Assembly (NCBI GenBank): GCA_905178155.1
Contig: CAJINV010000001.1
Span: 5,243,994-5,307,993, forward strand
DNA length: 64,000 nucleotides
Direction: 5' to 3'
Source of the DNA: Amoebophrya sp. A120
Lineage: Eukaryota > Protista > Dinoflagellata
Part shown: piece after piece, positions 14,529 through 51,154 of the stretch
Numbering within the stretch: position 1 is the stretch's first letter
Layout: each line of letters opens with the position of its first letter
The notes under the pieces: generated by a model
Told to the model about the DNA's origin: nothing
What the model saw: the letters and a program-made list of their open reading frames with translations, nothing else
Databases searched by the model: none
Program-made: the position numbers and the translations under genes

Positions 14529-16412
14529 GAGCCCAATGACATCCCAGTCAAGAAACGCGATGAATCCAGCACAGAATTTGTATAAGTCTTGCTACGCCTC
14601 TCGGTAATAAGAGCATTCATCGTTGCGTGCACAATGGAAAATCAGCTCCTCACCTGGTGTACACTCGCTTGTCCTATCCATCTATTCTATTGGAAAATTT
14701 CTTCCAACTCAAGCGCAACATGCATCGGGCTCGGGCCAGGTACATGAACTAAAAAAGTGCGTTTCTGTGATGGACGCATCAGCATCAGATACACTGTGCG
14801 TACTGGGTCGTGGGAGCGAAACAGAGCAAAGCCGCACAGAAAAGCGCGAGCACCGCCTGTCGCAAGTAGCCTCGGAAAGCCTGCATCCCGTCGGTGTGTG
14901 TGGGTGTGTGGCCGAGGCGCTTCTCACGAAACCCGGATAGCTGGTGGAGGAGGAGGGAGATTGATTGTCCACAGAAAGGCTTCAAGGTGCAGGCTATTCG
15001 TCCACGCGCTGCGCCTGGTAGATTATACACAACTCCGCGATGGTGGAATTGCTGCGGTAATCACAAGGAGATAATGTACTGAATGGACGAATTTTAGAGA
15101 GAATGAACTTTAGTGGTGTGATACACAAAGCCGTACGTTTTGTTTTTGTTCAGGCTCGAATACGAGAGAATCTCAGAAGGAAGGCGGTCTTTTTCACCAG
15201 CAACGGCGTTGCTTGTCTGTAGTTGCCTCTGCTGGAGTTAGAATTCCACATTTCCCCGTGTTGCAAGCGAACAAAAGGCTATCGCATCTGTATCTTCTCA
15301 TGAATATGCAAGAGCATCAAGACGCGTCAAAACACAATGATGATGAAAATGAATTGTAACGATGAAGGCAGCGATCTTGCTAAGGAAGACGAGGATGATC
15401 GACGGTACCTGGATCTTCTTTCGGAAAAAACTAAGATCTCAGGAGCAGTAAGAGGACCAGGTCTTCTTTGTCTTTCAGTAAGTACACGTACACGTAGGTA
15501 CTGGAGAAAAAAAAACTTCTTTCTGATCCTGGATAGCGGGATCTTTTCCTGATTAATTCACTTACGAGAGAGGACTGATACCTGACCATGATCCTCATCC
15601 TCTAGCACTACTCGCTTCAATCAGACGTCGACCTCGTGGCAACGCACAGGCAGTTGCGACTGCCCACGAAAAAACAACCATAGGAAGGCACACGCTACGG
15701 CTACCTCCCAATGCCTATGAAACCATCTGCTCGTGGATCTTCGATGATGGCATTTTCCTACTCTTTATCATTTTGGTAGTTCCGAGTCGTCGAGCAGCCG
15801 GCGCAGCGAAAAAACCGTTCCTCCGGCCACGGACCGGCTGATCTCACAAAAACAGTGCTCCACACTGTATTACAATGCCAATGCGTACAGTTGCCACGTC
15901 TTTTTTCGAAAAAAGAACCGTTATCGATACTTATCCATAGACACGTGGCACTCGGTAGCTCTAAGTTTTCAACACCGTGCTGTCCTGTGAGCGCGTGCAC
16001 CAACGTGTCCAAGTGTTTCCATTATCCTCCCGGCTATCATATCCGACGAGAAGCAGAGACAAGTCCATACAACCTGCGAAATTATAATTATTTATTGTTG
16101 CACTAGGAGCATTAACTTGTCCGAGCAGCAGGTCAGCCTAGCTCCGCTGCATCGCAAAAATACCCGCTCGACAAGCTTCTTTTTCCCTATGCCTGCAAAA
16201 AGTGATCAAGAGCATGTCAAAAAAAAGGCAGAAGCTGGCGTCACTCAACTGGTTTCACTACAAGATTGACTGGCTCCTGGGTCTGCGAGCACAAACGCCC
16301 TTGTTGGGTTCAAGTATAACTCAAATTTGCAGACTGCCACCGGTAACAAATACCTTCTTTCCGATCCCGAGTCAGAATCACAGTCCTTGTCCGGATCTGT
16401 AAGCTGGCTACT

Positions 16413-19392
16413 TCACCCTTCCTGCTCAAACTGAAAGTCCGGGAGCGGCACCAGATCACCGTGCGGGAAGAGCGTGGCGAGTGGGCCCGAGTACTCCGCG
16501 GCTATGGTCATTTGCCGCTGCGCCTGTTCCGCCACGTTCCTCGCGGCGGGCGGCAGCTCATCGAGAAACCGGCCACTGGTGGCCGCCAGCATCCCCGTTG
16601 TTCGGATGAACTCCTCGATGCGCTTGTCGACCTCTGTCAGCTTCTCCGGGTCGCCGCGATGGCTGTCGCCGCCGTCCTCCTCCGCGTCCCCCGGTCCGCC
16701 CTCGTCAACATCCATCGGACCTTCATTGCCGGGCCCGGGAGACGAACCTCCCCCGGGAGAGGAACCTCCCCCTGCTGTGTTGCTGCCCCCGCCAGTTTCC
16801 TGAGTGTCGCCTCCCGGCGGACCAGCAGAGTCACCATTGTTTTCCTGAGTAGGTGGTTCTGGACCGCTGTGACCGTCGCCTGCAAAATTGTCAAGTAGGT
16901 AAATTGTCTTCATTTACGGTTGAAATTTTTCATCCGATTTCCACATGCGCACTTATCAATTTTCCATAAAATAATAACGAGTCGGGCTACAACGCTGGTG
17001 CTCTTCCAAATAAAGCGAGAGCGCGTCTCTGCGAACATTTGAACATGCCAAAATCAATCACGTAGATCTAGTTTGAGCTTCCGCTGCCGCCCCTACTGCC
17101 AGCTGGGTCCCTGTGAACTGCCTTAAGTACTGAAGTACCTCCGGCCACATTCGTGTTCGTGCTGTCTCCGCCAGCAGTGCCGGGTTGTCCTCCACCAGGG
17201 GCAGGGGGCGGCGACACCACGCTGTCCGTAGCAGGTACATCCCTCGGAGGTGAGCTTTCGCCCTCTCCCGGCTCGTCAACATCGTCATCATCGTCAGCCT
17301 CGTCGCCCGTGATTTCCTCGCCGGTTTCCTCGGTATACTCGTAAAATATTGTGTATCCAATAAGCTCCTTGTTCCGAAAGACATGTTTTATTTGCAAAGC
17401 CGGCTGATCCTGCATCAGTCTGCCACGAGCGCAGGAACGCTTGCAACTGCAAGTAGATTGACACGCAAGATGCAAGCACGAATGCAAAAGTATTGAAAAC
17501 ACAACTTTTTGTTTCTGCGTGGTACTCGTCCACAATAATCCAATCCTCACGCTCATCACTGTAGACCAGACGGGCGCGCCCCGAACTTCCGGAGGAAGAA
17601 ACAGCCATGCACATGGGCTGCGCTGCCGTTCCCGGCCGCGGCAGTTTCTGGCGGAATGGATCGATCAGCAAGCTGACAAGCTCCTTCTTCCGACTATTCA
17701 TACGACCCTGCGTTCTTGCACCACGCCGGGTACCACCACCCGCACCGCTGCGATCGGCGCGCAGAAATCCTGGTTGCCGCCGCGCGCTGCCGGGACGCCG
17801 CGCAAGCATCATCATCGGTCTCGCCCCGTCCCCGCCCTGGTGAGCTCCCGCATTTCGCGGACCAAGCAGTTCCCGCGCCAGCTGACGCAGCAAAAGTGCG
17901 AGATCGAGTACCTGGTAGATCTCGTGCTGCGAAAAACAATGTCCGCGCACGTGCGTGAAACCCGATAGCAGGACCGGAGACCGCAGGTTTTCCGCCCCCG
18001 GCTCGGTCGCCTGCGACGGATCGCGGAATTCGCCGTTCGGAAGCGAGAGAAGGCGGAGCGTGACCCGTGGAAGTAGCTCGCGCGTCGACGGCGCCCAGTG
18101 TGACACATGCCCTCTGCCGTACCACACATCCTGCCAGGCGGGAACGAGAAGCGACTCGAGCATGTCCAGCACGAAGGGAAACCAGGTGTTCCGCGTCCAC
18201 TCGTACTTCAACTTCTGGCTACGAGCGTCGGGGACGTCTGCTGGACGGACCATCATAATCGCCATGTAGTCGGGATTCTTCTCAATGTCGTCCTCCCACG
18301 AAGTGGTCTATCCCGGTGGGGAAAAAAACACATTTTTCCTTCCTGCTCCCGAACTCGGGCGGGCACTGGTGTCGTGATTATTTCAAACAGTTTTTATCAC
18401 AAGTGACGGTTGTCACCTGAGCATGTAGTGGAAGAACTTCTTCTGTCGTCAATTATGACACGAAACCCGATATTACTTCTTCATAAAAGGTGATAGAGAT
18501 TGGGCAAGCATCGGGCTATTTGAAATAAGTTAGTAGCCTGATGCTTGCCCAACCGCTCGTGATGACATCCATCAGCAAGACCGGAGCGCCGCTCCGGGAG
18601 CGGGAATTTCAAATGTGTAATTTTTCAAACTACATAAGAAGGCCGTCTGGTACAAGCGCTGGGCCGCTATCAGCTTTCGGACAGGCTGAATGTCTGTTGT
18701 GATGCTATCCTAACAAAAAAAGTATTTCTCAGCGACAGACAAAAAGTGGCCACGTGTAGACGTGTTCCTATCCAATCGAGGCTTGCATTTGCAGTTGTGC
18801 ATGCACGCTCTACAAATAAAAGCAACTGACACCGCGGAAGGAGATCACGGACAAACTGCAAGTGCGGGTCTTGATCTATCATGCTCACGTGGATAGAAAC
18901 TTGGGCTGCAAAAATGTAGACCTGATGCAATATTTTGTTAGCATAGGTCCCGGCCGAAGGGTCCCCTCGCTGATTAGTGGCGGCGAGGACCGCGTCTGCT
19001 GCTGGAACTGGTTGCACCATTCGTGTCACTGCGGCAAAAAGAAGGGCCAGGTCAGACTGAAAAAAGTGCATTTTCTGGCTGTCCGGAGCCATTCCGTGGT
19101 CGTGCCACTTGCTCGCGGCCTCCAGCACCGCCGTCGACGCCACGCGCTCCGGATTCGGACACAGCACTCCGGTCTCCGGGTTGGGTGCGACTCGGGCTTC
19201 CTCCACCTTTGCGAATGCGGCTTCCAGAATCTCCAAGCGAACCTGCATGGTGCCGCTGTCAGGACGACCAGGAGGCGCGGCAGGAACGGCGCCTGTGGCT
19301 GTGCCGAAAATGCTCGTCCGCAAATAACCAAAGCGGCTGGAGGCCTGGACGCCAACCGCGGCCGCGAAACACAACACCTCGCGGCTTCGCAT
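16413..19392 (-). CDS. Putative secreted hypothetical protein, multi-exon, with acidic and Gly/Pro-rich C-terminal segments
   Basis: N-terminus MRSREVLCFAAAVGVQASS. Long GC-rich ORFs at 18670-19431, 17294-18265, 17068-17340 and 16413-16913. No recognisable family. Confidence 0.5.
18500..18552. repeat. 19-bp inverted repeat (hairpin, 15-nt loop) in a probable intron
   Basis: ttgggcaagcatcgggcta ... tagcctgatgcttgcccaa, one mismatch. Confidence 0.85.
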
Positions 19393-21313
19393 TCTCGCTT
19401 TCTGCGATTGCCAGTTCTGGTCTGAAGGCACAGGAGGGGGCTCGAATCGATGCTGCGCCGCAAAGGTAGTGAAAATGAGTTGGGCTATGGAAAAATCTGC
19501 TCGCGACTTCGAAACGACGGATGAAGAATCGAGACCGACCTCGATGGATTGATTTTTAGATCGTATCTAAACAAGATTTAGACGGTCAGAAAGATATAGA
19601 TTCCTCGTGGTGGAAAAATGTCAATGTGCGGTTTTCTCTTCTACTTTACTCAATCAAGGAATTCTTCTACAATTGTAGGTAGTTGTTCACTGAAAGAACA
19701 ACTTGTGACACAGCAGGGAAATGAACTAGAAAAAGCTGCGTGGTTTGGGACTGAGTTGAATACACGACCTTGTGCCGGCATCATAAGGTATGGCAAGGCG
19801 ACAGCGAGTATCTATCAATCACAACTTGTTTCAACTGCATGCTCAACCGCCTAGCAGCCGGCGCTTCAACACACTGAGCTCCTCGACCCAGCTGATCTTG
19901 GTTATCGCAAAGCACCGCCACCGCTATGAACTTGTTACAGTTACGGTCTCGATGCTTACATAAGAAACTCACGAGATGGAGAGGAACGAACGCAACGCTA
20001 TGAAAGTACAACCATTGAGACCTCTACTTCCAGGGATCTTGAGGTGGATCTTGATCTTCTATGCGGAACTTGCACGAAAACAAAGCTCATCGATCCGGGA
20101 TCACGGCAGCAAGATCTCGGTTCGCCATCAGTCTAATAGGGTGTCTTCATAGTCACTACTTCTACTAACAACCGCACGTATACCACATCCTGCTTGTGGT
20201 GGCGAACTCTATAGCACATCTAGTTCTTGGCGAAAAGTGCAAACATTACAGAAAAAAGGGAAGCCATTACCATATCGGTATAATGATGCGAATCGCAACA
20301 AAGTCGTAGTTCGTTTTCAATAATGTCTTTCTCGTCTGATCTTCAACTGCCCGTGCTGGTGTGTAAGCAGCTTCAGCCTCGAGGGCCTGCGCTAAACGAG
20401 CACATAGTGACAAATCCGCACGCAGCTGAAGCAGCTGAATGGCGTCTTTTGACTTTTTCATTTTCTGTATGTACTTGCACAGCTTAAGTTCTGTGTTCAG
20501 GTCTCCATAACGTTGATTCTCTGCTGCGCCGCAATCGCAGTTGCAAAATACTGATCGTGGTTCGCGCGGGCAGGCTTCACTTTTTCTGCACGAACAGCCT
20601 TTCCTAATTGGCTAGCACACTGTCCAACCTACGTGATACATCGCAAAACTTACCAATGACCTTGTTGACGTCCACGCCTGTGAATGCATGAGTCAACGAC
20701 ACTCCGCAGAGAATGAGAAAAGCACATGCTCGTGTAGATATGCAAGCGGCCGAGGCCGATTCGACAAACGGCGCAGCTGTAATTTTTGCTCGTCATGAGG
20801 AACGCGTCGAGCTAGTAAAGACTCATGCAAGCGCAGGCCTCTTGTCATTGTCATTTCATTACTGCATTCTCATCTATCATATGGACCTCGCCAGCCAACA
20901 GATTCGCGCCGTACCCGTATGCTCGTAAAGCCGATCTGCAATTTCACATCTTGGACTCAGAATTCGTCTGGGAAGTTGAGATCGCTTTTGAAATGGTGCT
21001 TTTCTTTATCAAGCCGAAAATGGAACTGCCACCCCTCCGCAATCTCCGAGTCACCACGAAAAATTTTGCGGACATCAAAAGTTGTTACTCTGTCTTACTT
21101 CAAGGTTGCACGGGGGGCCGCCGTATCTCCCCACCCTTTCTCATGCGCTTTTCTTTGCTTAATACGCAATAGTCCTGCTTCACGGGCCGGGTACACATCA
21201 TGACCTTGAGCGTGTCCAGCTCTCAGGAGTGAGGGGCGGCAAATACGATACATATTTTCTCTTGCGGGTCTGCACATGACAATGCACGATCTAGAGAGCA
21301 GGATGAGGTGGGG

Positions 21314-23504
21314 TTACATATCTTCGTGTTGATAAATGGCCATTTCCCCAACAGCTCTCCAATACGACGCGTCTGCCTTCTCCCCTGCTGCCTCTGCTCC
21401 TGAGGCGATCCACCTGAAGATGTTCTTCGTATGCCGAGAGTAAAGGAAAGTTGCCAGCTGCTCTTTGCAGTGGAGGGTGCCAGTCTACGACCAAAAATTC
21501 ACCATAATTTAAGAATATGTCACTCTCACGACTTCGAGCTTGATTCAATGTGATCGAGCAGGGTGGCATAAGAGTCCTGGTTGAAATCGCAATTCTATGT
21601 ACCTGCGCCACAGTCTCTGCGCCTCAGGATCGTAGGGGGTGTCGACAGTCCCGGCGTCAGGGTGCACCAAGAATTCCCACAAGCGGTCAATCCAGCCGTG
21701 GAGAGAGTAATGCTGGCACTATCCCATGCAAACATGCGTGTGATGGAACTCGTTCCGAGAGCCAACTTAGACTTTAATCGGCCAAAACAACAAAGTTTCA
21801 GTGATGGCTTGCAACCTTTAGTCGGACCGCTGTAAATGGAAAACTTTCGACTTTCACCACAGCAGATACATACTTACTCCTAGTTGTATCTGTTTTTCAG
21901 TAAAAGTAACAAGGTCATCCAAAAACGAATGGCGTCTTGGGGCGCTTTTCGATGTCGCACTCGCACACTTGCGAGCCTGGTAGGCCATGCGCAGAAGTAC
22001 TACTACAAGATCGTTGCACCGGATAGCCAATTACCCTCGGAAATCTTGAAACAGCACCTCCCGCCTGTTTTGTAGGATGAGCGCTTTCCTACCGATGTAC
22101 TCAAGGAAGAAGACACATGCCATCGTGTCATATTATGGTAAAAATTTCTAACTCAGAAGCCTTGCACACTGGGGCTTGAATGAGGCAAATCCATTCCTGG
22201 CTCAGAAAGCTAACTAGTGCAGGACTCATCATGCGGCCGTCCACAAAACAGTTTGCTACAACACTACTCCCTAGCTGGATTAGAGTTAGTATCAATCTTA
22301 CTGGTGCCGCTGTTGTTTATGTGTGCGTGGAACGTCTTGAATTTTGCATAAGCCTGGGGCTGCTCCGGGAGGCGGACCTGCAACGCGTTCGGATCCTTGT
22401 AAATATTCCAGCCTTCAGGCACCGAAAACCCATCCGGAATCATTATCTTGAAGTGCTGTAAAGGCAGTAGTGGCACATTCATTGCAGGGTGGAGAAAAGT
22501 CAGTCTACGCAAGCTCAAAAGAAAAATGCTATAGTATTTCTACTCCGTGCGGACCATGACGATATTCATTTTCTGCATCATCTGCAACCCCGCAGCGGGA
22601 AAAAAGCAAGCTGAAGTCATCGCTATTCAAAGGTACAAACATGTTCCTGCGTGCATCAGTGAGTCCGTGCAAACCTTTATACCATCAACAGTCCGTGGTA
22701 GTTTTGATAAGGGAAGCTGTGTGTCGTCGAGAAGGTCTTCTGGTCGGGCAGGAAGTCTACCAACAAATTTCCGTCATCCGTGACTTTGGCATGGAGCGCT
22801 ATGCATTCGCAAAACTATCATGACACCACGCCTGGGCATACACACGCTGCAACAATTTCTAATGATCCATCAGCACCTTCAATACAAGCAGACAGAGCAA
22901 ATCTGCAGCTGTTGCCAAGTATTTATATATAGAAAAGGAAAACTGGCACGTTGACCGTGACAGCGCCAGGTTCCAACATGTGAGATTGTTTTGCCCCTGA
23001 TAAATTCGGGCTCGTCACCATTGTCCCACTGCGCATTGATGTAACCTTCCACCCAACGCTCCAAGGCGGCCTGTATTTTCAATATTTTTTCTTCAACGGG
23101 TGGATATCATATTCATAGATACCGATCGTTGCAATTAGGAAAACAAAGTCCAACGTCGACGAGCAAGATGTGCTAGTGTAAGTATGTCTGTCACTCACGA
23201 ACAGGAATTCACGAGAAGCAGCATGTGGAAGCAAAGCAGCTGCGAAAATGGCTGTGCAACGCTTGGATCAACAGACCTTCCAGACGTAAGAATTACTATT
23301 CAAAAGGACGTCAGAATTACTATTCAAAATAGTTATGACTTCCATTGCATCATCTACAACAAAGTTCCACCATGCCATGTTGCAGTATCAAATTGAACAC
23401 ACTCACACTTACTGTACCTTTTTGTCTCCGTCCCCGCCGCGAAGAGTGACCGCCAAGGTTTGCGCCGCAAGGCAGCACGCCAAAAACAGGGTCTGCTTCA
23501 TCAT
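21314..23504 (-). CDS. Signal-peptide-bearing divergent E2 (UBC-fold) protein, paralog A, multi-exon
   Basis: Signal peptide MMKQTLFLACCLAAQTLA. Exons: ALERWVEGY..EPEF; VTDDGNLLVDFLPDQ..YQNYHG; FKIMIPDGFSVPEGW..QPQAYAKFKTFHAHINN; HYSLHGWIDRLWEFLVHPDAGTVDTPYDPEAQRLWR; ..SYWRAVGEMA. The exon carrying the catalytic Cys was not resolved. Confidence 0.65.
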
Positions 23505-25474
23505 CCTTGTCGGCTGAGAACCGTGGTTTGGACTGGACCACAATGGTATCCTCGGATACGGACGCGCCGGAGATGCGTGAGTAGAAAAGAAGTGGCGCAA
23601 TACAAGACGCCTGCTTTCGCTTGGGTTTGCCGATTCGTAGATCTTCTACTTCGAACCGATGGTCAATGTGTTTCACGAATACACGTCACGAATACACGCG
23701 CAAGAACTTGCTCTGGTATCGTAAAACCTTTAGAGGGATCAGCGGAAGGATTTTTTTCGAAATGTATGTATTCTTTATTTCTGTTTTGTATCTAAGTTGC
23801 GAACTAGAGTGTCGTCCAGCTGCTGTCTTTACTCTGATGAGGATGTACAGAGCCTCCAAACCTGATTTGCCTGAAAATCGTTATGGAATGAGATGTCCAC
23901 CGGGTGCCTGCATGATCAGTACGGTTGAAACAGAAAACGAGGGATCCGTGCCCGGAAGGAAGAAACAGCACAGTGAGCACATGAAAAGGATCCTATGCCA
24001 TCTTCACCTCTATCATCAAGAAAACCACGCGACGCCAGCAGTGGATCGTTCTTCTTTGCAAAAACGTCGAGCCCTTTATTGCTGGCTTCCCAACGCATCT
24101 CCTGAACTTCTAAAAAGAACGCACAGTGGCACAGCATGGATTGTGGTGATGTTGTAGGTCTACGACACAAGAAACGGATCATCTTTCAGTCCCAAATCGA
24201 GAGGAGCCACGCACACAGCGCTGATCTTCCGCTGACCATAGCGGTTTGATCTTCCGTTAGGACGAGCGAGAGCGTGGTCTTTCAGCACAGTTACAACACT
24301 TCAGGCTCGATCCAGATCCACTTTGGCAGACTACATCAATATGAACTTGCGACTACCCATCAGATCCTCTTTCTAGGGACGCCATTCCTCGTGTCTGAAG
24401 ATTTCATATAACAACCGTCAGCTCACCTTGGGAATGGATCTGCGTGCCTTCGCTGCTGGTCTTCTTGTCTTGTGAACCAGGATCCCAAGACATCAAAGCG
24501 CAAAAAAAAGTTCCGGTACGAGCGAACTCGGATCCAGTGAACAGTCTCCCTCGGCCAGTACTCCAGGACTGACGGTTCTACTTATTCGTCCACGCAAAGT
24601 CGTGGACCAATCGTGTACAAACAAACGAAAGGCAAAGTACATTGTCCACGTAAATCTACCGAATAATTACCACCGCGCTGCAGTCGACTAGCGGCAGCTG
24701 AGGGAAGAGTAAAATTCAGTGAAAGTAGATAGAAATTGTATACTATTAGTTGTAGAACAAAGTGAAAACATTGTATATCATTGGCGCGCCATCAACCCGT
24801 CCTCAGTTCTTTTTAGGCGCCAAGTTTTAGCAGCGTCTCTGAACGAGCATGTGCGCACGTGTGAAACGTTTCTCGCGAACGGACTGCTGACGCCCCAGAG
24901 ACGGTACGTACCAGTACTGGTTCGTTGTCGTGAACCAGCCATCATCTTACAGAAAATTCCATGCCGGACCTGATAGTGGCGCCCGACGGAAACTCGATCT
25001 CCTCGCCGAATTACATCAAATTTCAGGATAATTCAACAACCTCTGGACCTGAACCAGAAGCTGGATAGAAATAGAAAAGCCTCCTGCTGCTCCGCATGAG
25101 AAACGAACTCAATTCAGAGGGGCAGGCTCCGTCGATGCCCGGACAGACAAGTAAGTGCAGTTACCTCTTCCGTGCGCAGAGGACAGAAGAAGTGAAACAA
25201 TATATAATTCGAAGACAGAGTGATGTGCCGCAGCCGTGCTCGTCTCGCGACCGCGCTACTCGATCGTGTCCGTGAACCTCAGGTCTTTCCTGTAGCGATT
25301 TGCAATGCAAAAATGTCTGAGTCTGGAAAAGTGAAGAGTTTGTCACGCAGGGCTTGCATGCCCCAGAAGGTTTGGAATGCAAAGTTTCAGTTTCTTTGCA
25401 ACGCCACCCAGCATGACAAATTGTCTCTCTGCGTGGGCAAGAGGGGAACGGAAGCGGAACGAAGCTCTTACTGC

Positions 25475-27186
25475 TCATGCATGACAGAATTCTAGTTGAT
25501 TTCTGTGTACTTGAAAAAGAGCATCATAGGTTGGAACTCTTGTTCCAGACCCAGACACCTTTGCAATGCATAACTGATGGCTCGCAGCCATTTGTCCAAC
25601 TGCTTTCCAATAACTCGGATCGCCCTGGGTACTCCACTTTTTCCACAAATCTTGGGCAGCTCTGTCGTAGGGCGTCTCAACCTTTCCCGCATCGGGAGTT
25701 ACAAGAAAAACCCATAACCGCTCAATCCAACCCGCGAGAGAGTAGTGGGGCCATGTATCATCCATAATCCTAAAACAGCAATGCCCGTCGCCACCTGTTG
25801 TATTGAATAAAAAGTATGGAAATTGGAAAGTCCGAAATGGAACAACTCGTTTGCTCGATGAAAAGCAGCAAATTAAACCACTCAGCTATCTTCATCTCGA
25901 ACGGTTTCTACCAGATCTCAGGTCACACGCCAGATTCATGAGATCCAGAGTCGGTGTCATCAATAGAATCTTTTTTCGGCATGCAAAGGAAAATTTTGCA
26001 TGAATACAGCAACATTTAGACTAACCAAAAATGTGAAGATGTAGACTAACCTGCTTTGTTGTTGATATTTGGATGGAAGGTTTTGTATTTGGCGTACGCA
26101 ACCGGCTGAGTCTTCATCTTTACTTTCAAAGACTGTCTGTCTTCAAGGATGCTCCAACCCTCCGGGACGAAGAAGTCGGGGTCCCTGATCACAATCTTGA
26201 AATGCTGTGTAGAGGTTTGCGATGACGAAATGTAAACTCTTCTTCTGTGACAGTAACTCGGGCATGTGGAATTTCTATATCGTCTACCTTTTCGATAACT
26301 AGCATTGAAAACAAGAATCAAGCTACGGCATCCCTGCGGATCATACGGTCGAAGCTGAAAGCGCGGCCACTAGTACAACCGCCATATGCATACCAACGAA
26401 ACCACACCACAAAAAAAATCTTACGCAATCCAATTGTATGAAAACCTCAATCTATATTACCATGTAAATCCCGGAGTAGTTCTCGTATGGCAGCTTTACA
26501 AACGAAATTTCCATGGCAGTTCCATATCTGAAGTCGGACTGAACACACAAATTGCTTAAGTACCCTACTTAGTCTAGCCCGAGCAGGCGGAAGACTACTA
26601 GATACCTGACAGTTAGTCCGTGCGACGAATGCAATGGCGCGCATGCCGACTACTATTGTGCCTGAAACGGCTATAATTTTTCCGCCACAGATCCTACTTG
26701 TGCCCTGCACAGGAAGGTAACCACCTATTTCAGGAAAGGAGCTGCCAAGAGAAACTTCAATGGGATACAACCCGCCGCGTCGCGTCAAATTCTTGCTGGT
26801 CCGGCTCGAATGCCACCAGCAAGTTTCCGTCTTCCGTAACCTTCGCACGAAATGTGGGCTCGGGCTCCCCGTTTTCCACCTCCTCCCATTTTTTTCCGAT
26901 GTAACCTTCGATGAACCGTTCCAAGCTTGCCTGAGTTTCATGTAAGTTGGAGCTTATCATCAGTTTTGCAAACCGGAAGCTGCACACCAAAAGTGCAATT
27001 GCTTCATCCTTCATCTCCACATGTAGTCATCATGAACAGTAATACGTAGCACAGCAAAGCACGTATTGGTTGCGAGGGGAAAGTAGCTACCTTCTTCTCC
27101 GACAGTGATTGGTTTTTCAGAGAAAGCCCGGCCGCAGACCCAAAGGCAAAGATACCCACTACCGACGTAATCAAACCGCGTCTCAT
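25475..27186 (-). CDS. Signal-peptide-bearing divergent E2 ubiquitin-conjugating-like enzyme, paralog B, multi-exon
   Basis: Signal peptide MRRGLITSVVGIFAFGSAAG. SLERFIEGY..EPTFRAKVTEDGNLL; FKIVIRDPDFFVPEGW..QPVAYAKYKTFHPNINNKAG spliced (GT-AG) to GDGHCCFRIMDDTWPHYSL..LVTPDAGKVETPYDRAAQDLWK. The HPN motif and downstream Cys match the UBC active site. Confidence 0.75.
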
Positions 27187-28938
27187 TTTGCAGGCGGATC
27201 AAATAAAACTCGCCTTCGCGGTCTCAGCAATCGCAATGTGTCGCTTCGATGTAGTCAGTGCAGTAATTGATGAAAAGAATGTGTGTCCTATGCGTATGCT
27301 TAATTTTGAAAGTAGTAATGGTACAAAAACTAGAATTGAATTTGAATGCGACACCTGTCACGAAATTCAAAATACGGCACTAGATACGCATGGATTCATT
27401 TACCTGTGAAGTATAGAAGACGGCTCCGGCCGTAGTAAGCGAGAAGTAAGGAAAGACATCAAAGCCCATAGGTACATGTGTAGACGACCAACCGGCAAGA
27501 GAGGCTCCATGCAGCCGGGACGATGAGCACACTGACACTCTGTGCCCGCTGCAAACGACGAATATATTTCGAGAAACGAAAAAAACGCATGTTCAGCAAC
27601 CTAAGTACGTTGATCCTTGGTAAGAAGACCAAAACGATCAATGATCACATAGCGTGTCGGGCAGACGAGCAGATCTTCTAATGTGGCCTCGACTACCAAG
27701 GGGACCATTGCGATGATCTTCTGCGTCAAAATGTACTTGTTCGCGAGTGCCCAGATGTTCAGTCGTCCTCCTCGTGGTTCGTGGAGGATCTTCCTTGCAT
27801 GATCCTGACAAGAAACGCATCAGAAAGATAGTGCGAGTTCTAGTATTCATCGAAAGTGGTGGAGCGGCGCTTGTGCTACCTATCACCTAGCAACGTACAT
27901 GCTTATCACATGTTGACTCGTTGGCTTTACCAGAACCACAGCTATACTAGAATACGCGCACGGTCCCATGCTTCTTGTCACGCGATCATATGATTCGAAG
28001 TATCGAAAATAGCTTGAAGTACAAAAACATATCTAAACATCGGTACAGTTTTTTCCACTCTGGATCAGGTGCTAGACTCTTCGAACCCCCGGGTTCAAAT
28101 TAACAATTCCATTGCACATCGTGCTGCAGGTTCGGCCTTTCCTACCCGCGGGCATGCTAGAAGAGTAGGTGGACCAGAGCACTGCGCCAGGTGCTCAGAT
28201 TGATTCGGATGGAGGACGCCAGCACTGAGGTCGCCGTTAAAATTCGATCACTAGATTCAACCTGGTCTCCTGGTCCCAAAGATCAGTCGCAACAGAATTC
28301 TTCTTCGGAGCAACTTTTCCAGCGGCTTAGCGGTCCGCAACAGCGGCAAGAATCGCCGCAACAGCGGCAAAAATCGCAGGTGCAGTTCCTGAACCACGGG
28401 CAGATGCGCTCCCACATGAAATTTTCCTGAACTGCGCGTGCATGCAGCAGAGCCGCACGAACACGGTCGATCCCTTCTCTCGGCCCGAGAACCTGCCTGA
28501 CAGCGCCACTTCAAAGTGTTATATCAGTAACCAGGCACCTTGAGGTAGCTTCGAAATTCAGCGATGGAGCTGCTGCTACGGGGATCCTCGACCCACGGAT
28601 AGCCACCATCATCCGTGCTGCGGCCGTAATTATGCGCGCGCGACTGCTATGACCATGAGTGAGCCACCCCGAGCCCCAGATCACAAGTAGTCCTTTTCCG
28701 TACCTTTCTGGCAACAGATAGGGCATGCCAAGACATGTAAAGATCAGTTTATGGCGCTAGACGATGCTGCGCATCAAAAAGAAAATCATATACAGTTACA
28801 GACGAAGCATGCCGACGTGTCGATTACACAAGTACAGGAGTGCTTCATCTGGGCGGACTCCTTTCATCAAATCACTCTCCCTCGGGTCAGTTACAGAAAT
28901 AATTTCCTTAGGAAAAGTAGCGCTGGGGGGTCTGCTCT

Positions 28939-30151
28939 TCATGTGGATACTTTTTCCCAAACCTTATCCCAGTACTTGTTGCGGTCCTCCTTCCACAATT
29001 TTTTCGCCTCGTCGTTGTACATCGAGCCTGTTTGGTCGCAGCCGTCCGGGTCGATAACGAAGCCCTCCCAGAAAGCCATAATCCACGCGCTAAGGGTGTA
29101 CGCCTGCTCCCCCCACGAGCCCATAGTGAAGCAGGCATTTCCACCTGTAACCAAAATTAAATGTTGACACTTACTGCGTAGAGTTCAGCTCGCCCACCAC
29201 TCAATCAGCCCTAGTGGACACGAGTTTTCTACACTCGAAAGAAGTGTGCCGGTTATGAGTAGCCTCTGGAAAAAGTCACGGACGATTCCGCTATCGATAC
29301 TCATACAAATTATGCAAATGCGAGAAGGAAAGCAAACGGAAAAAAACCATAAATGAGTTAGTACTGATGGAAGACATGTGCGGGTGGTAAATGGGATACT
29401 GCGCCATGGCGTGCGGCTGACCGGAAAAACGTACTCTCCTCTCGTCCTTGTCGGAGAGGATACTCCAACCCTCGGGAACACGGAAGTCGTCCGGAATAGA
29501 TATCTTGAACGCCTGTCGGGTGGTTTGTAGATCGTTTTGCCGAGAACTTTACCCGCCTTGGGATAAAATCATACTTGGAGCGTCTGCTTACCACCTGCGC
29601 ACCAAAAAATATCAGATCGATCATCACCAGAGCACCAGGAAGCATAGTTGATGTCGCTGCCTTCATATTGAAAAACAGGAACTCGAAATCGCAATCGGAA
29701 TTAGATTGAGAAGATTACAAAAAAAAAGTACGAGCTCGACCCCCTTGTAGTAGTGTCCGGGCGGCAGCGAAAAATAATTGTCCAGGATCAATAGCGGCGG
29801 CAGGAACACGATGAAGAGATTGCCGTCATCAGTTGCCCACGCACGAAAGCCTGGGTCTTCGTCTTCTCGAATCTTCGTGTTCACGTAGCCCTCAATCCAC
29901 GCCCACACCATGTCCCTTTTCGCGCCCAGAACAGGCTCAATCCCGAAGAAACCAAGTAAAGCGGCACATCTCGCTATCGAAAGAAGAAAATCATACATCT
30001 TCGAGAGGGTCCCCACCACACAAGAACCGCATGCCAAATACAAGCGGATTAAAATTTTTCATCCTCGGCCGATTGGGGTACAGCGATTGCTTGCTTTCGT
30101 TGCACTGCTTACTCCAGCACCGAGGGCGCAAAAGCACAGTGCTCGAATCAT
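28939..30151 (-). CDS. Signal-peptide-bearing divergent E2 ubiquitin-conjugating-like enzyme, paralog C, multi-exon
   Basis: Signal peptide MIRALCFCALGAG. WIEGY..DPGFRAWATDDGNLF..GHYYKG; AFKISIPDDFRVPEGW..QPHAMAQYPIYHPHMSSI spliced (GT-AG) to SGNACFTMGSW..IDPD..YNDEAKKLWKEDRNKYWDKV. This matches the UBC consensus YHPN-x-SG-x-C..W..P..N.EAA. Confidence 0.75.
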
Positions 30152-31536
30152 GGCAATAGAAAACCGCGTCTTTACTTCTGGAAATTGCGGATGTTGCAAA
30201 AGCAAATACAAATTTGAGTGTATGTGTATGCATCTCACACGCTACGGGTATAGAAAACATAAGTCTCAATCTTTTTCGTAGCGAGCCAGACGGAAAAAAG
30301 GCGACGTCCCGTAAACGCCGATACTGCCCGAACCGCACTCCGGCCAGCAACCCTGCCACCAGACTGCCTCATTTCGTTCCCGCGCGATCGTTTATCAAAT
30401 CCTCTTGTCAACCCAGTCTGGAAAAGAAGATCTTTCGACGCACAAGGCTTCGTGACGAGGCCTTTCCGTTTCCGTTATGCTTCGACGCCACCTCTGTGTG
30501 CCGAAAGAGTATGGGTCGTGGTCCAGACAGAATCAGTTTAGGTACTAGTCTCAGAAGTACTCGAATCACGATGAATGATACAAACCTCTTTTTTATTCAA
30601 GCCAGATTCTGCTCCGAGTTCGACTCTTGGTGAAAAAGAGTTCAAATTTGAACCCTACAAGGTGTGTCACAAACTACGACATGCTACGCTGTAGTTTCAA
30701 AGAGAAAGGCGCAACTGGCTGTGGTTTTATTGGGATCATTTGACCTTTCATCACAACGAGCAGCACACTTGCTGGTGTCACTGTGGACGACGTGCATATA
30801 ATCATCATGAGCATGACACTCACTGTGAATGTGCGCTTTACCTTCTCACAGCAGATCCAGATCGTCATCTTTCTGGGGAGCGCACACATCTTCATGATTG
30901 TGCTTTATACTCTTGCGGATCACGCACGAAAAAAGAGCCGGCCGTTCTCTTGCAGAACGTCAGGACCAGTAATTGTGAGCTCAGGTAAATGAATATAACA
31001 CTTTCGTTGAGATCTCGATTACTACGACGGGAAGCAAGCAGTGCAAGTGTTCGATTACTTTTTCTTGAGAAACAGAAAGTGCGTAGCAAAACCGGACCTG
31101 TTCCAAAGTTTCTGCTCTTGCTGCACATCATTCACGATCATCATCTCAGTGCGATATCAATCTGACGCAGTAGAAGAGCGTCAGTGAGTGTGATGCAGGC
31201 TGACTCACTTTCCCAACGCGATGGCGCTCGCATCCTTTATTTTCCTTACTTAGTACATGCCATTGGGAGAGATGGGGACGACGAAAAAACGCTTTTCATC
31301 GTCTTATAAAGTTGAGAAAGCTCTGACAATGTTCGGATTTACAGATGTTACAGCGAACTTATTTTCCACGTGAACTGCAGCTGCCACATTCCTGCACAGT
31401 TCTGTTCATAAATAATAGCCGAAAACGGATTCACATCATAACCTCCGTCAGCATAAACACATGATTTTGCATTACGCTTCAAGTTGCACTTGCGGTGGCT
31501 GCCCCATCAGTATCAGGTGGCATGGAATGGTACGAC

Positions 31537-33191
31537 TTACATCTTTTTCGAACTTCCGAAAACAGCAGGAGGCAGCGCACTTCGTGGCACCGGCTCACCT
31601 ATCAAGCTTCCGCTCATTCCTGTTTTGCAGAACCGGGCGCCTACAGCCGCAAACTGAGACCCCGTGCTCTGGGTGCCTTCATGTTGCAATCGTCGATCCC
31701 GAGCCCAGTGCAACATTGGATTTCGTCTCGCAGTCAGAATTTCCCGCAGCAATATGGTCATCGTGGGAATTCATGATCGGGATGGCCCGTCCTTTTTCCG
31801 CTTGACTTGTGTATAAAATTCTCAAAGCGTTGTAGCACCTCAGGCATTTGTGCACGAAGCACATCAGTAAAGATTTAATGTCATCTATGTGTATTTCGCT
31901 CATTATGCATGATCAGAGGGCAAAAGCTGCTACACGTATCTTGAGGGAATCGCGCTTGCAGAGAAGCTCCTGCAGCTGCAGTGGGCGAGTATGTAAGCTG
32001 ACGAAGACGCACATCATGCATCCACACAATTTACGAAACAGATATCGCAACATCCACCTACGAAAATGCAAACTCGATGTGCTAGCTTTTTTTTCTCTGA
32101 TATCTCTGCGAAGGCAATGAGGTCCGGGCCGCGGCTCGTCAGGTTATCCCGTATGGTCATCGTGAGGTCAGAACTTCCTGGACGTGCAGTTGTGCTCTCA
32201 ACAGCAAGAAAGTCTTTTCCTTTGATCATGTACCTGCGTATTATGATTGAGTATAAAAATCTTGATTGCCTACTTAGGTACAATATTTTCGCTCGAACCG
32301 GGACCAAAAGAAACTGGGCCGAAGGTGATTCCAGGGACAACTTTTGAGCGATGCAAACCTGTCGACGATGGACAGAAGTTTCCATTCAAAGCCAGCTTTA
32401 TGAAGAATTATCAGCGCAGTGGTGGTGCGACTGTGAGTTTGTGCTCGTGGCAATCTTCACGATGAGGGACTCAAGCGAGTAGATGAAATGATCCTGCAGC
32501 AACGGCTGATTCGAAACTGATGCATATAATGACCGGAATAACAAACATCGTACCGTCGGCCCTTTTTCGGTCCGTTGGGATGCAACTGGAAGATCCAGTC
32601 TTTGACTTTCTGCATCTTGTCCTCAAACTCGAACTCGGCCATCCCGACGATATGCAGCAGAAAAGCACACCATTGTATACGCACCACGTGCTGGGAGCAT
32701 ATTCTGGACCGAGAGTTCATGCATTACTGGTACTTTAAATATCTGCCCTTAATGCGCTTCTTACCAATCTGATAGATCAGGCATCCATTTGGCGGTCCAA
32801 AAAACATGTTGCCGGTGCAGCAAGAATCTATTTTACGTAGACAAATTGCAATTGCGTGCGCTCTTTCCGCCTCTTCATGCAAAACGTACAATATACAAGA
32901 AAACACGCTATTCAATCCGGCCTCCAAGGAGGGACTTTAGTACGACAGACTAGTCACCAGCAGCATGCTCGATGTGCCCGCAAGCAGGATAATGCATTCA
33001 GCTACTTTCACTTCTAGTACGTGCAGGGCAGATAGCTGCCAAGCGTGGTGTGCGGATGAAGTGCTACAGTTTTGCTTTTCGTAGAACGGTGCTGAAACAT
33101 AGAGTTTTACTTTCGGCGCAGCCTCCCCGACCCAGACTGTCGCCAGAAGCACCTGTATCAAAAAGAGCGCGCGGCGACCCGCGGCACCCAT
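31537..33191 (-). CDS. Secreted ubiquitin-like small protein, family member 2, multi-exon
   Basis: Signal peptide MGAAGRRALFLIQVLLATVWVGEA. Exons: AEFEFEDKMQKVKDWIFQLHPNG; RYMIKGKDF..SDLTMTIRDNL; PIMNSHDDHIAAG; GEPVP. These share motifs with members 1, 3 and 4. Confidence 0.45.
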
Positions 33192-34612
33192 GGTGTTGCC
33201 GTTGCCGCGCCGATTGCATGGAGAGGCTGCCATCTGGGTGCGATTGAAGGTTACTGCGCCAGGACGAAAGCCTGCGACTCCAACACTACGACTAGCTATT
33301 GCCAGCAAAACGAGATCGTCTGGTCCTGGTACTTCGCATTCACTGTACTTAAACGCCGTATACTCTACAACCCCTAGTAGAAAATAGTAAGAGACTGACA
33401 CTGAGAACGAATATGGAGATAGAGGTGGAGCTCGCGCCCGCGACTACGTACGGACATACCTGCAAGAACGTGCAGTCGTACGCAAGGAAGAAAACTGCAA
33501 AGGAGCAGCTTGCAAGGTAAGCAGTGGATCATGCCTCGCGAACGTGATCACCGGACCTTGTCGAAGCGAACTCGACTTTCACGGATCTCCCTCCGGGACC
33601 ACACCGTTTTCTTCTGGATCTTCGGGTCAAAGGATCGACTTTCCATAGTGTCATGATCACAACGAACAGCAGATGATACTAGTCGTGTCTCTATTTCTGC
33701 CTCGAAACAAAACGCAAGCGAAGACGGGAGTCGCCGGGTTCGGGGTGCAACTGAATAAATAAAAGAAGCAGCCATTTTCCAGCGCGTAAACCTACTTGTT
33801 TGATAGGGTCCTTCTCCTTCGATATAAAGAAAGCATAAACGAGCGACCTCATGATCTTTATCAAAGATTCCAAGGAGCAGGCAATCACCACACCAACCTG
33901 CTTGCCAATTTCTTCTGCGACGCAAACTGTTGCGGTTGTCTAGCAGATGATAAACCTTCGTTCCAACTTATTTCAATCCGTGTGCCAGTGCTCCTGGCAG
34001 ACAAGGTAATCGTAATATTGACGATACTAGGGTAAAGCGCAGACCTGGCCACGTAAGAAGCGGCAACGGGTAGAAAGTTTGCTAGTACGCCTTATTTTCG
34101 TTGTAGTAAACTACTTAATTCAGTGATCCCGCTCGGGCGTCCATCTTTGCCCGCTCTTTGCCTTCCACCTCCTCGATGTTGTATTTGTATTGCGCAGGCC
34201 TCGCGGTTCAAGCGCTAGGGCGCGGTTCGGAGCCGTACCACAGCTCCAGCGACGGCAGATCCCTGTCACCGAACCTCTCGTACTGCATAGCATACCTTCG
34301 CAGCTCCCGAGCGGACGTCCACCACGCCGGCTCCGCGGTGCTCTCTTCGTCCGGACTCGCGAGGGACTTCATCGTCATCCCACCTGCCTCGACCTTGATT
34401 TTGCTTTCCAACAGCATCTGAGTCGTCTCATGTCTTGCGGTTATCCAGTGGAAAATGTCTATCGCCATCGGTCCAACACCATTTCCATTCCTGCTGCCAC
34501 TCAAAAATGCACGATGCGCATCTATGTGTAAAGCTCAAATTAAAGCTTGCGACTCAAACCCGAATTTGCAACTACGTTTTGAAGCAGGTATACCGATTGA
34601 AAAAGACGCATA

Positions 34613-37600
34613 TCATGCAACAACCATAAATGCATAAATCAATATTTTCCAATGAACCGGCCAATGCAAGCTACTATGAATCGGAAGAGCGAGAGACGTT
34701 GACCACAGGATAGCGTGCTGAACGATGTCCCGAAGCGTCGTCTTCAGCGAAAATCCCCGACGAGTCCATTCCTTGCGCAGACGGCCCACTTGCGTCCGCA
34801 CGATGTCCTCGAGCTTCACCGCGGCACGGTCCCCGGAGCCTCCGGACGGCCCGGCCAAAAAGCCACCGCCCCCCTTCGGAGGCCCAGCCGACGCCGCCGG
34901 GTCGGACCAGCCCGACTGCGCGACGGCGTCGATATTGGCCTGTTCCCACGCAGGGTCATTGTATTCGGGGAACGCGCCAATTTGCTGCAGCAATTCGGCT
35001 CGGACGTCCTCGCGGGAGAACGACGCAACCGGAGCCCGCTGTCCATCGCTCGCGGTCATGCCGGGCGGCGCCGGAGCGCCAGGGACGTCCTTCTTCGGAC
35101 CCACTTTCTGCGACAGGCTCCGCTCGATCTGCCGATACAGGTTCAGCGTCGTCTTCAACATCGGGGCGCACACATCGATTGCACCTTCCACCGTGTCGCC
35201 GCCAGCAGGCGCCCCGGTTTCCAGTCGGGATGTGCCTTCGGTAAACCAGCGGTTCCGGACGCTCTCTGCTCCGCGCATAAAATCCACAGCGACCGCCTTC
35301 AACGATGTAAGTCCTCTGGAGGTTTTGCGCTCCAGACTCCGCTGTTGTCCCGGAGACGTACCACCTTGCTTCGGGCTGTCGGGCCGCACCACTGTCTCCA
35401 GCGCGTGACCAATGAGCTCTGCAAGGAGCGCATTCCCGCCTGTGCTTGGCGAGTGAGTCAGCAAAATTTCGCGACAAAACTCTCTAGTGCCGTCGTAGAG
35501 CGTGAGATACTGCGGTATCTTTTCGTCTACCTGCCCCTGCAGGATGTCGCCTTTCTTCACGAAGTACCCCAACCGCACTTGCCATTTGAAAATCCGAATG
35601 GCCAAGTACTCCCGCGCCCACTGCAGTACTCCGCCGAGCGTGGTGGCCGGCACCCGGGCGGTTTCCCAGACTCCCCATTCATCCGCCGTGGCTTCGATGC
35701 TGGCTCGTGATTGGTAGAAGTGCCCCATGTCACTCGACGACGGATTCGCGAGCGTCTTCAGGTCAACCGTATGAGAGTGCACAACTCCCCCTCCCCCTTA
35801 TTTGGATGGCATCCGCAGCAACACAACTCCTGGCACAGATGCAGCTATTGAAGGACAAATTTACGACTGATTGTAGTGGCGATTCGGCTTTGGGAATCTG
35901 TCATGCGAGCAGTGCCACAGAGCAAAGAGTGGATTTGGTATTTTGCATCACAAATGAGGGGGACGAGGGGGGCGAGTTGTGCACTGCCATAAACCGCCTC
36001 GTCGAAACAGTGAACTTTATTTGCACCGCACTTCCGGCGCTTTCTCGCCTGCATCGAACCATCTTCAGACCGATCATACGCCTCTTGGAGCTGCTTTTGC
36101 ACCGTCTTGAACACCTGGATCATGGCTACGCCTGTTGCAGCTGCGGTCACAGCGATCGACGCCGCCCCGATGCGACCGGCAATGCGGGAAACAGCTGCCT
36201 TCTGCATACGCGGGATCTGGTGATTCCGCGCGCGCAGGTTGGCAGCAGAGTACACAAAATCAAGGTGGCTCCACTGATCTTTATCATACTCGAATTTCGC
36301 CACTTCGTCTGAGGACGGCGGTTCCGCAGCGGTGTCCTCCTCGCCCAGCATCGCAGTCAGCCCCCTGACTAACTCGCGGATCCGCAGGAGTGCGGCATCA
36401 TCGGCCGCGCCCGACTCCATTGGCTCCTGCTGCATCGCCTGGGGAGACCAGGGTTTCACGGTCAGACCTGCCGTGCCCCCAACATACTGGAGTGGACGAC
36501 CATGATCGTCAACCACGGCTTCCAAGCTGGGATCAAGTTCGGTCGCCGCCACACGCTGTGGACCTTTCGTTGTGCCGCCGGTCGTCGTGACCGACGACTT
36601 CGCTTTCGAGGACGCCGCCCATTTCGTGCGCTCGCGCAACATGCTCGCTGCCAGCCGAGCCAACAACTGCTTGTGAATCGCCGCGTTGCTCCGGACATAG
36701 GCAGCATGCGTGGAGTCCTCGTGCAGCTGCAGGCCTTCTTGGAAGCTCGGGAATTTGCGTTTCTCGTGAAAAAAGGGCGTGCCATCATCTTCGACCTTGT
36801 CCCGCGGGTACCGGCGTTGCAGGTCGCGCACGGCGTCGTGGAAGTGCAGCCAGAACAGCTGCACGGACAGTTCGGCCGACACGCGTCCGACAAAGCCGTC
36901 GAGTTCCGCGTCCGAAATCAGCGGAGACGTCTCCAACGCGGTCCACAAAGCCACAATCGCCTCGATCCGGAACAATTCTTCACGGCGGCGCGCGAAGTCC
37001 AAGTCGCGCGCCTGGGTTGCGGCCTTCAGCTGCCGCCGCAGGTCCTTCATCGTCACGGGAAATTCGTTGAAAGAGCGTTCGAACACCTCCCGGGCCCAGT
37101 GAACGCAGTCGGCGGCCGTTCGCGGAAACTGCCGCAACTGGCACGCGCGCACATTCGGATCCGGTGCGCCCTTGCTCGCGGAGGACTTCCAGAAGTTGAG
37201 CACCGCAACTTTCCCCTCGTAACTGGAACCCGGCGTTCTCTCGAACCGTTTTGCGTTTCGCCGCAACGACGCGAACTCTGGGGTCTCGTGCCCAACTCCA
37301 GCAGAATCGACCGTAGCAAACACGTCTTCCAGCGCCCCCAGCTTTTCCGCCATCACCGCAGGCGTGTGCGGTCCCCCGTCAGAGAAGTAGGTCCGCACGG
37401 TACTGCCACTCACCGAAAGTACCTCGTGCAGGTACTGCGGAAATTGGCTGTCGCTGGTCCAGTCGTGCCACTTCCAGCAGTTGGTGTGGTAGAGCTGGTA
37501 CATCAAGGTCTTGCCGCTCAAGAGGATCACTGGCTTCCCCTGATGCATGTTCGTAAAGTAGCTATACAGGCTCTGCTGTTGCTTGTTTGTGCATGCACTT

Positions 37601-50836: not shown

Positions 50837-51154
50837 GGGCGCGCTGTGGTCCAGCGTATCGTCCAGAAAAATGCTACAGCACGTGCTGCGTAGGCTGCGC
50901 TGCAGAGGCAGAGTTCGGGCAAATGCAGAAGCAGTGTTAGCTTGCTTGAGATAGGAGCGAACATACCCTCAACGTACATGTTTGTGCGTCGGAATGGTCT
51001 GCTCCACTCTTTCTCTTTCGAGCAACGAATCAGATTGATAAATCAATATAGGCTTCATACAAGACCCTACAATACAGGAAATTGTAATTGATCGTATCCA
51101 TAACGGAGACATCGACATTTGCACCGCCAGCGGCATGAGAAATACATCATCAGG

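Follow-up and report, generated by a model that had tools for sequence, protein, structure and literature searches.

What kind of conjugation system, if any, is encoded by the cluster of divergent ubiquitin-conjugating enzymes (E2s) in Amoebophrya sp. A120, and where in the cell or its host would it act? The stretch analyzed, referred to as the window, comprises 64,000 nucleotides of contig CAJINV010000001.1 (forward-strand positions 5,243,994 to 5,307,993) and is eukaryotic and intron-rich. A preliminary description of this DNA had proposed three E2 paralogues with signal peptides, here named A, B, and C, next to a ubiquitin-activating enzyme (E1). We found that A, B, and C are real, spliced, and intact genes rather than pseudogenes, and that their products are very divergent E2 proteins with a catalytic Cys and the UBC fold, by structure prediction for B and by alignment to B for A and C. 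These E2s are probably live enzymes charged by the neighboring E1. For the whole chain, a private secretory-pathway cascade of E1, E2, and ubiquitin-like protein (Ubl) that would most likely act in the dinoflagellate host, we see about an even chance. The three E2 genes are as follows, with identifiers abbreviated after the first.

20957..23504, minus strand: E2 paralogue A (P0001, GSA120T00003486001), 231 amino acids, 8 exons (7 joints seen), leader, active-site triad HAH, Cys145
25256..27186, minus strand: E2 paralogue B (P0002, ...3485001), 233 amino acids, 6 exons, leader, triad HPN, Cys154
28524..30372, minus strand: E2 paralogue C (P0003, ...3484001), 263 amino acids, 5 exons, triad HPH, Cys164

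The introns of A, B, and C were read from spliced contigs of sequencing run X1, in which all 16 joints were seen, the first intron of C included; in the DNA-like run X5, none of the 15 joints tested was spliced. X1 was taken as RNA by guess, a choice backed by its spliced joints, and no run on record as RNA covers the stretch. Splicing the window at the X1 coordinates produced open frames in all three genes, identical to the annotated proteins P0001-P0003, which removes the pseudogene possibility raised in the preliminary description. Ten of the 24 transcript-supported introns in A, B, C, and the upstream genes could not be read as GT-AG or GC-AG, and seven of these ten (21-36 kb) are readable as introns starting with TA, mostly TAT; the genome paper reports 65% of A120 introns as non-canonical (PMC7789003, supplement). 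Because so many introns are non-canonical, the Cys exon and the last exon of A and the first exon of C had been lost to a reader working without tools. Gene A, previously ended at 21314, runs on to 20957 through a non-canonical intron. The previous start of C at ATG 30151 lies inside intron 29971-30281, whereas the true first exon in spliced X1 contigs is 30372-30282; the transcript joint of this exon also rules out another candidate start, ATG 29998. Aligned with B, paralogue A shows 53% identity and C 35%. All three genes have a phase-0 intron ahead of strand 3 and a phase-1 intron just 5' of the catalytic Cys, and these shared positions and phases confirm tandem duplication.

Two side observations concern the same genes. 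The 32-base end of the last, non-canonical intron of B (25543-25574) has very high depth and many short X5 contigs, and is likely a repeated introner end. On both sides of C (27731-28160 and 30360-30724), X1 contigs carry ~250 loose letters that match nowhere in the stretch.

The E2 fold proposed earlier is borne out by structure searches with B, although sequence profiles fall short. The Pfam family UQ_con (PF00179) matched B at 16.5 bits (E 0.0067), under its curated cut-off of 27 bits, and matched neither A nor C. The AlphaFold2 (AF2) model of B, built from an alignment of 3 sequences, had a predicted local distance difference test score (pLDDT) of 57.9. All 40 matches listed by Foldseek for this model were E2 structures or E2 complexes (best E 5e-4). 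The VIA search gave a best Z of 8.3, a middling value, with 146 residues aligned at a root-mean-square deviation of 3.7, and its best 30 rows were all UBC-fold or E2-containing. An Atlas model of B matched UQ_con clusters at template modeling (TM) scores of 0.57-0.59 by query. Matches to viral E2 structures (best E 4e-3) did not surpass those to cellular ones. Paralogues A and C are tied to the UBC fold by their end-to-end alignment to B alone. Like canonical Ubc4, Ubc13, and Ube2K (PF00179), the A120 proteins have the fold elements from helix 1 to both C-terminal helices and the order His-x-[N/H] then Cys, and A and B keep the downstream Trp. In contrast to canonical E2s, they show 10-19% identity, a leader, an apparent insertion of ~18 residues for the YPxxPP loop, and a spacing of 9-12 rather than 8 residues between triad and Cys.

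A profile of one shared exon retrieved just three proteins from 165 candidates, all of them from Amoebophrya sp. A120. The E2 search of 1.84 billion representatives returned six matches, of which two were the cluster's own and four were repeat-like, multi-stretch matches (P0004-P0007) that were set aside; three of these four fall on a stretch that also matches WD40 repeats. Scans of metagenome and viral contigs gave nothing for the E2s or the E1 and are weak tests given the introns and the divergence. Thus, no E2 orthologue was found among the 165 candidates, the 1.84 billion representatives, or the metagenome and viral contigs, a negative result that is limited because evolution is fast in this genus.

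The active-site triads diverge as first described, with HAH at A132, HPN at B140, and HPH at C153, and the catalytic residues of B and C, recognized earlier in GHCCF and GNACF, are Cys154 and Cys164. In A, by contrast, the Cys had been called unresolved. It is Cys145 in the motif GRCCF, carried on a transcript-supported exon of 38 nucleotides (22063-22026), and the column common to A, B, and C for the catalytic residue is the second Cys of CC. Because the catalytic Cys is kept, A is not the pseudo-enzyme resembling a ubiquitin E2 variant (UEV) that had been suggested. The third triad position is separated from the Cys by 11 residues in A, 12 in B, and 9 in C; the same spacing is 8 in Plasmodium falciparum Ubc13 (manual count) and 8 in the apicoplast enzyme TgE2Ap (H565-C573; PMC3681736). 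The HPH triad is described as the signature of Ube2W, an enzyme that can modify N-termini with no E3 present (PMC4630614), and an essential, Cys-dependent apicoplast E2 is reported to carry HXH (PMC3681736). Since active HPH and HXH enzymes exist elsewhere, an E2 that has lost the triad Asn need not be inactive, and by analogy the A120 E2s may use non-lysine or E3-independent chemistry. Ube2W is described as having an HPH triad and a non-canonical C-terminal region after helix 2 (PMC4630614). Among the paralogues, C alone has HPH. Two C-terminal helices are present in the model of B, which aligns better with canonical E2s (Z near 8) than with Ube2W (Z 4.2).

Of the insertion noted earlier, the motif VPEGW[SN]I..D.....V is invariant in all three proteins, whereas the length is ~18 residues rather than 15. 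From the Pro after strand 3 to the triad His there are 36 residues in A and C versus 18 in P. falciparum Ubc13 (manual count). A rival register, given by a weak phmmer alignment (E 0.2), sets VPEGW on PYEGG and has no insertion there; however, the strand order in the AF2 model of B (59-63, 69-73, 96-101, 133-137) favors the register with the insertion. The favored interpretation of the model is a family-specific insertion of ~18 residues in place of the YPFxPP loop. The motif [WF][IV]EGY is also present in all three proteins, as claimed, at the C-terminal end of predicted helix 1 (residues 28-38 in B). The YPxxPP loop and helix 1 are the usual contact surfaces for E1 and E3 (PMC4630614 and established knowledge), and their replacement and alteration fit a specialization of these E2s to the neighboring E1.

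N-terminal leaders were assessed by comparing the best hydrophobic 11-mer in the first 40 residues with 2000 shuffles, a crude test rather than a signal-peptide predictor. This 11-mer was reached by 85 shuffles for A, 15 for B, and 55 for C, compared with 759 of 2000 for a canonical UBA1 control. The leaders of A, B, and C are on separate first exons; that of C comprises an Arg-rich region followed by the hydrophobic stretch, and C also has a C-terminal extension. In all eight cluster genes tested, the hydrophobic 11-mer was reached by 5-244 of 2000 shuffles, and predicted signal peptides are likely on the cluster proteins. The distance from the hydrophobic stretch to the first domain is ~9-21 residues (with a Ser/Gly linker in the small protein P0010 described below), leaving little room for a transit peptide. 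The E2s being under the Pfam cut-off, their triad-to-Cys spacing of 9-12 instead of 8, and the fast protein evolution reported as general in this genome (PMC7789003) could point to dead or decaying copies, or to cytosolic proteins with incidental hydrophobic N-termini. We consider this very unlikely, as the frames are open, the transcripts are spliced, and the His, Cys, and active-site context are kept in all three proteins at 35-53% identity, with leaders encoded by separate first exons in all three genes and present on each neighboring component as well.

The cluster genes are all on one strand, and the six proteins fetched carry identifiers 3482-3486 and 3488. Directly upstream of C lie the small protein P0011 and then the E1.

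34208..41184, minus strand: UBA1-type E1 (P0008, ...3482001), leader, long insertions, C-terminal extension, 5 joints in X1

The E1 has 1901 amino acids by transcript and 1915 in the annotation. Pfam detected ThiF (127 bits) and SCCH (79.7 bits), the best PDB matches were UBA6, UBA7, and UBA1 (E 5e-42 to 5e-34), and both the GxGxxG ATP-binding motif and the context of the catalytic Cys1105 are kept. By its sequence, P0008 is thus identified as a UBA1-type E1 with intact catalytic motifs. It resembles UBA1, UBA6, and UBA7 in the IAD-AAD-SCCH order, the ATP-binding Gly motif, SNLxRQ, and the catalytic Cys context, but differs from them by its leader, by ~900 extra residues, and by giving no Pfam match for FCCH, 4HB, and UFD. 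In the alignment, an N-terminal insert of 37 residues, hydrophobic at its core, precedes the point where canonical UBA1 begins, and the C-terminal part aligns patchily to the UFD of the control UBA1. Among 7987 scored candidates, a single other match reached E 1e-10, and it is 26% identical. Because the E1 is also leader-bearing and only 26% identical to its one other match, the co-evolution of the E2s with it that had been suggested appears plausible. Two features of its introns were also observed. At 39365-39663, X1 splices the first intron to give 14 amino acids less than the annotation, reflecting an alternative donor or an annotation difference. The non-canonical intron at 35765-35991 has a 12-base terminal inverted repeat and a 5-base direct repeat at the junction, is matched by other contigs, and is introner-like.

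Four small leader-bearing proteins, candidate ubiquitin-like modifiers, and an OTU-like gene, which the preliminary description had missed, change the reading of the locus. Two of the small genes, F and G, lie upstream of the E1, and P0010 lies downstream of A, beyond a gene of no assigned family.

31679..33233, minus strand: P0011 (...3483001), 166 amino acids, 3 joints in X1, leader, tail HDDHIAAG followed by an extension
13564..14886, minus strand: P0010 (...3488001), 164 amino acids, annotated model, leader, the most divergent of the four
42517..43513, minus strand: gene F, GT-AG model predicted from the genomic sequence, 164 amino acids, leader, paralogue of P0011
44750..46549, minus strand: gene G, 5 in-frame pieces predicted from the genomic sequence with two junctions provisional, leader, paralogue of F

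The similarity of F to P0011 (z 6.8/9.9), of G to F (z 17/35), and of G to P0011 (z 4.6/5.7) was reached by none of 2000 shuffles, and that of F to P0010 by 1 and 21 of 2000. In the alignment, F and P0011 also each have a phase-2 intron that interrupts the same codon. On these comparisons, the four are assigned to one predicted family. A first model of F with an apparent LKGG diglycine was dropped, as the paralogue G shows that exon 2 runs on; the revised model was chosen by its fit to G and is therefore partly circular, and the shuffle count for the leader of F used the first, wrong C-terminus. After the last strand, the small proteins share the segment N/D-x-x-D-x-I/L-A/M-A, close to which stands a lone Gly; the chain then ends in a short extension.

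Further upstream than F and G is the OTU-like gene, and the gene without assigned family lies between A and P0010.

48111..52670, minus strand: candidate OTU-like deconjugase, leader, multi-exon, Cys motif across GT-AG intron 50528-50062, candidate His strand
16413..19392, minus strand: leader-bearing gene between P0010 and A, presumably ...3487001, provisional model

The OTU-like gene has GNC-W-FHS, then AHQL and LRQxVADWL across the intron, and later a YVNxxGxH strand. These resemble rice OTU motifs 2 and 3 as described (PMC8878984), a likeness of motifs only, and its single exons gave no Pfam or PDB match. We regard the 48-52.7 kb gene as a candidate OTU-like protease, and hence a candidate deconjugase. 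Its leader and that of G have hydrophobicity scores of 2.2 and 2.0, respectively, unshuffled. The gene at 16413..19392 (244 of 2000 shuffles in the leader test) had no Pfam match; its position would suit a ligase or an adaptor.

Taken in order, the components suggest how a private cascade could work. Signal peptides would be cleaved in the endoplasmic reticulum (ER), and the C-terminal extension of a small protein would be trimmed, possibly by the OTU-like protease, to the single Gly after the shared NxxDxIAA segment. The E1 would adenylate the small protein and hold it as a thioester at its conserved Cys, from which it would be transferred to A, B, or C. The altered helix 1 and the insertion of 18 residues would be fitted to this E1 and modifier, and not to host ubiquitin, E1, or RING ligases. 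The three triads and the differing loops from triad to Cys might serve different acceptors, HPH possibly acting on N-terminal amines as in Ube2W.

A number of observations weigh against this cascade, most of them at the small proteins, whose identity as modifiers is its weakest link. They gave no Pfam or PDB sequence match, ubiquitin included, and profiles of their exons retrieved nothing in the PDB. In their favor, independent models of P0011 and P0010 point weakly to a beta-grasp fold. The AF2 single-sequence model of P0011 (pLDDT 38.7) opens with strand-strand-helix-strand-strand, and nearly all of the 48 Foldseek matches listed were ubiquitin, NEDD8, SUMO, UBL, or related beta-grasp structures, all at E 0.07 or worse and TM <0.3. 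The VIA search with this low-confidence model gave 39 rows with no Ubl and no Z of 5 or more. For P0010, an Atlas model (pLDDT 0.54) gave ten rows at TM 0.37-0.49, mostly of beta-grasp families; two were aligned to PF00240, others to FERM, USP7, PB1-like, and NUB1 clusters, with some unnamed. The feature score was 0.87 for the PF00240 cluster and below 0.9 throughout. A ubiquitin-like fold of the small proteins, under every threshold, is suggestive only. In shuffle tests, P0010 was not significantly similar to G or P0011. None of the four proteins ends in diglycine. Their candidate Gly residues do not all align (Leu takes the place in G), and the tail measures at least 10 residues, compared with 6 in ubiquitin. 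Single-Gly modifiers such as UFM1 and ATG8 exist, so the missing diglycine does not exclude conjugation. On the enzyme side, the AF2 model of B is of middling quality, Pfam detected no UFD, FCCH, or 4HB in the E1, the main E1 contig ends at 41083, 100 bases short of the ATG and before the leader, and no E3 was identified. Finally, the signal peptides are predicted on a hydrophobicity basis only, and a leader alone does not tell the destination.

In a rival reading, the exported E1 and E2s would be active on ubiquitin (of host or parasite) or on some other modifier of the host, with the small proteins as non-conjugated binders, decoys, or unrelated effectors within one island of secreted genes. 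Their lack of diglycine and weak fold support, the best PDB matches of the E1 to UBA6, UBA7, and UBA1, and the presence of unrelated leader-bearing genes (M35 proteases) nearby would all fit. Nevertheless, this appears rather unlikely: the E1 is just 26% identical to its one other match and almost twice the normal length, the E2s are without the YPFxPP loop, and four paralogous small proteins bracket the E1 and E2s. The nearby genes referred to are the following.

56-991, 4058-4927, and 11355-12430, minus strand: three related leader-bearing genes, candidate secreted metalloproteases adjacent to the cluster

Two of them match Aspzincin_M35 (E 9e-7 and 0.011) and have HExxH; the third aligns in pieces.

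Where the private cascade would act was considered in light of the parasite's life style. A120 is reported to be without a plastid (PMC7789003). It is described as living at first inside a parasitophorous vacuole of the host cytosol and later inside the nucleus of the host, whose chromosomes become smaller and are consumed (PMC9478091). An earlier transcriptome study proposes, without going into detail, that SUMO and ubiquitin have a part in invasion, its available text naming no secreted enzymes (PMC6176090). Stage-specific expression was sought, and the cluster gene identifiers were not found in 10, 1, and 5 supplementary files of PMC6176090, PMC7789003, and PMC9478091, respectively. Alternatively, the same cascade could operate inside the parasite's own endomembranes, such as the ER lumen, the vacuole, phagotrophic vacuoles, or the tubular network. 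Leaders specify ER entry only, the parasite is known to form phagotrophic vacuoles as well as a network of intravacuolar tubules (PMC9478091), and the apicoplast precedent works in an internal compartment (PMC3681736). Such an internal site is nonetheless unlikely. No KDEL- or HDEL-type C-terminus was found in the proteins inspected, A ending in PDEF. Thioester chemistry requires ATP and a reducing milieu, which the host cytosol or nucleus would suit better, and the tandem expansion and the absence from the other genomes searched look like effector evolution. In its most specific form, the export reading is an orthogonal kit of the E1, three E2s, four single-Gly tags, and a deconjugase that would write a private code on host nuclear proteins, unreadable to host deubiquitinases, and would possibly be a remnant of the apicoplast machinery; we offer this version only tentatively.

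The apicoplast machinery concerned is the symbiont-specific ERAD-like machinery (SELMA), with TgE1Ap/PfsUBA1, TgE2Ap/PfE2Ap, and PUBL (PMC3681736, PMC5487736). As described there, it resembles the A120 set in being a nucleus-encoded E1, E2, and Ubl with ER leaders in a myzozoan, and its E2 has HXH with an essential Cys (PMC3681736), as A and C have HAH and HPH. The set could thus descend from this machinery (E1Ap, E2Ap, PUBL, and its deubiquitinase), repurposed after plastid loss, an origin compatible with export. SELMA, which serves plastid import, is the sole leader-bearing set of E1, E2, and Ubl found in our searches, the HXH of apicomplexan E2Ap is conserved (PMC3681736), the myzozoan ancestor is reported to have had a plastid, and the SELMA table of the A120 genome paper covers Cdc48, Derlin, and Ufd1 only, not the E1, E2, and ubiquitin (PMC7789003). 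However, those Cdc48, Derlin, and Ufd1 proteins are placed in host-type clades or beside none of the known Cdc48 proteins (PMC7789003). HPN is retained in B, and HXH may thus be an innovation of the cluster itself. The spacing of 8 in E2Ap (H565-C573) also differs from the 9-12 found here. SELMA needs a plastid and bipartite leaders, whereas A120 is described as lacking both the plastid and SELMA (PMC7789003) and its leaders, with ~9-21 residues to the first domain, leave little room for transit peptides. PUBL is reported to share 56% identity with ubiquitin and to require its diglycine (PMC5487736), unlike the A120 small proteins, and three E2s and four candidate modifiers in one gene cluster are likewise unlike SELMA. 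We regard this origin as quite unlikely, and the A120 set, though alike in its leader-bearing E1, E2, and modifier, is not filed under SELMA.

The leader-rich region ends at two minus-strand genes, a phosphoribosyltransferase-like one at 54944-55843 (E 0.01) and a class I/II aminotransferase at 57230-59266 (E 7e-28). Beyond them, a single-exon open reading frame of no family at 62439-63470 (minus strand) has an N-terminal hydrophobic stretch, a low-complexity middle, and a C-terminal membrane segment.

No published description of a leader-bearing E1/E2 cluster in Amoebophrya, or of secreted E1 or E2 enzymes in parasites, was found in the literature searched, with subscription journals and unreadable supplements outside its scope. 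The available part of a review of protozoan Ubls mentions PUBL as the sole compartment-targeted system (PMC7600729). In a nematode, HsUbiI is described as a ubiquitin-type protein with a cleavable C-terminal extension that a eukaryotic parasite secretes into host cells; there the modifier alone is secreted (PMC3595553), whereas in A120 the E1 and E2s are also leader-bearing and the candidate modifiers are far from ubiquitin.

Irrespective of where they act, HPN, HPH, and HAH on one scaffold constitute a natural experiment on the role of the triad Asn. Ubiquitin-type conjugation is cytosolic or nuclear, and a private secretory-pathway cascade, if true, would be a new use of this chemistry, as a self-contained effector system or a lumenal one, without a plastid; proof of export and of conjugation of the small proteins would make it categorically new. 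Such a set of E1, E2s, and modifiers would be naturally orthogonal, hence of use as a tool. For Amoebophrya itself, the cluster provides testable, named candidates for how the parasite takes over the host nucleus, a point left open by the imaging paper (PMC9478091).

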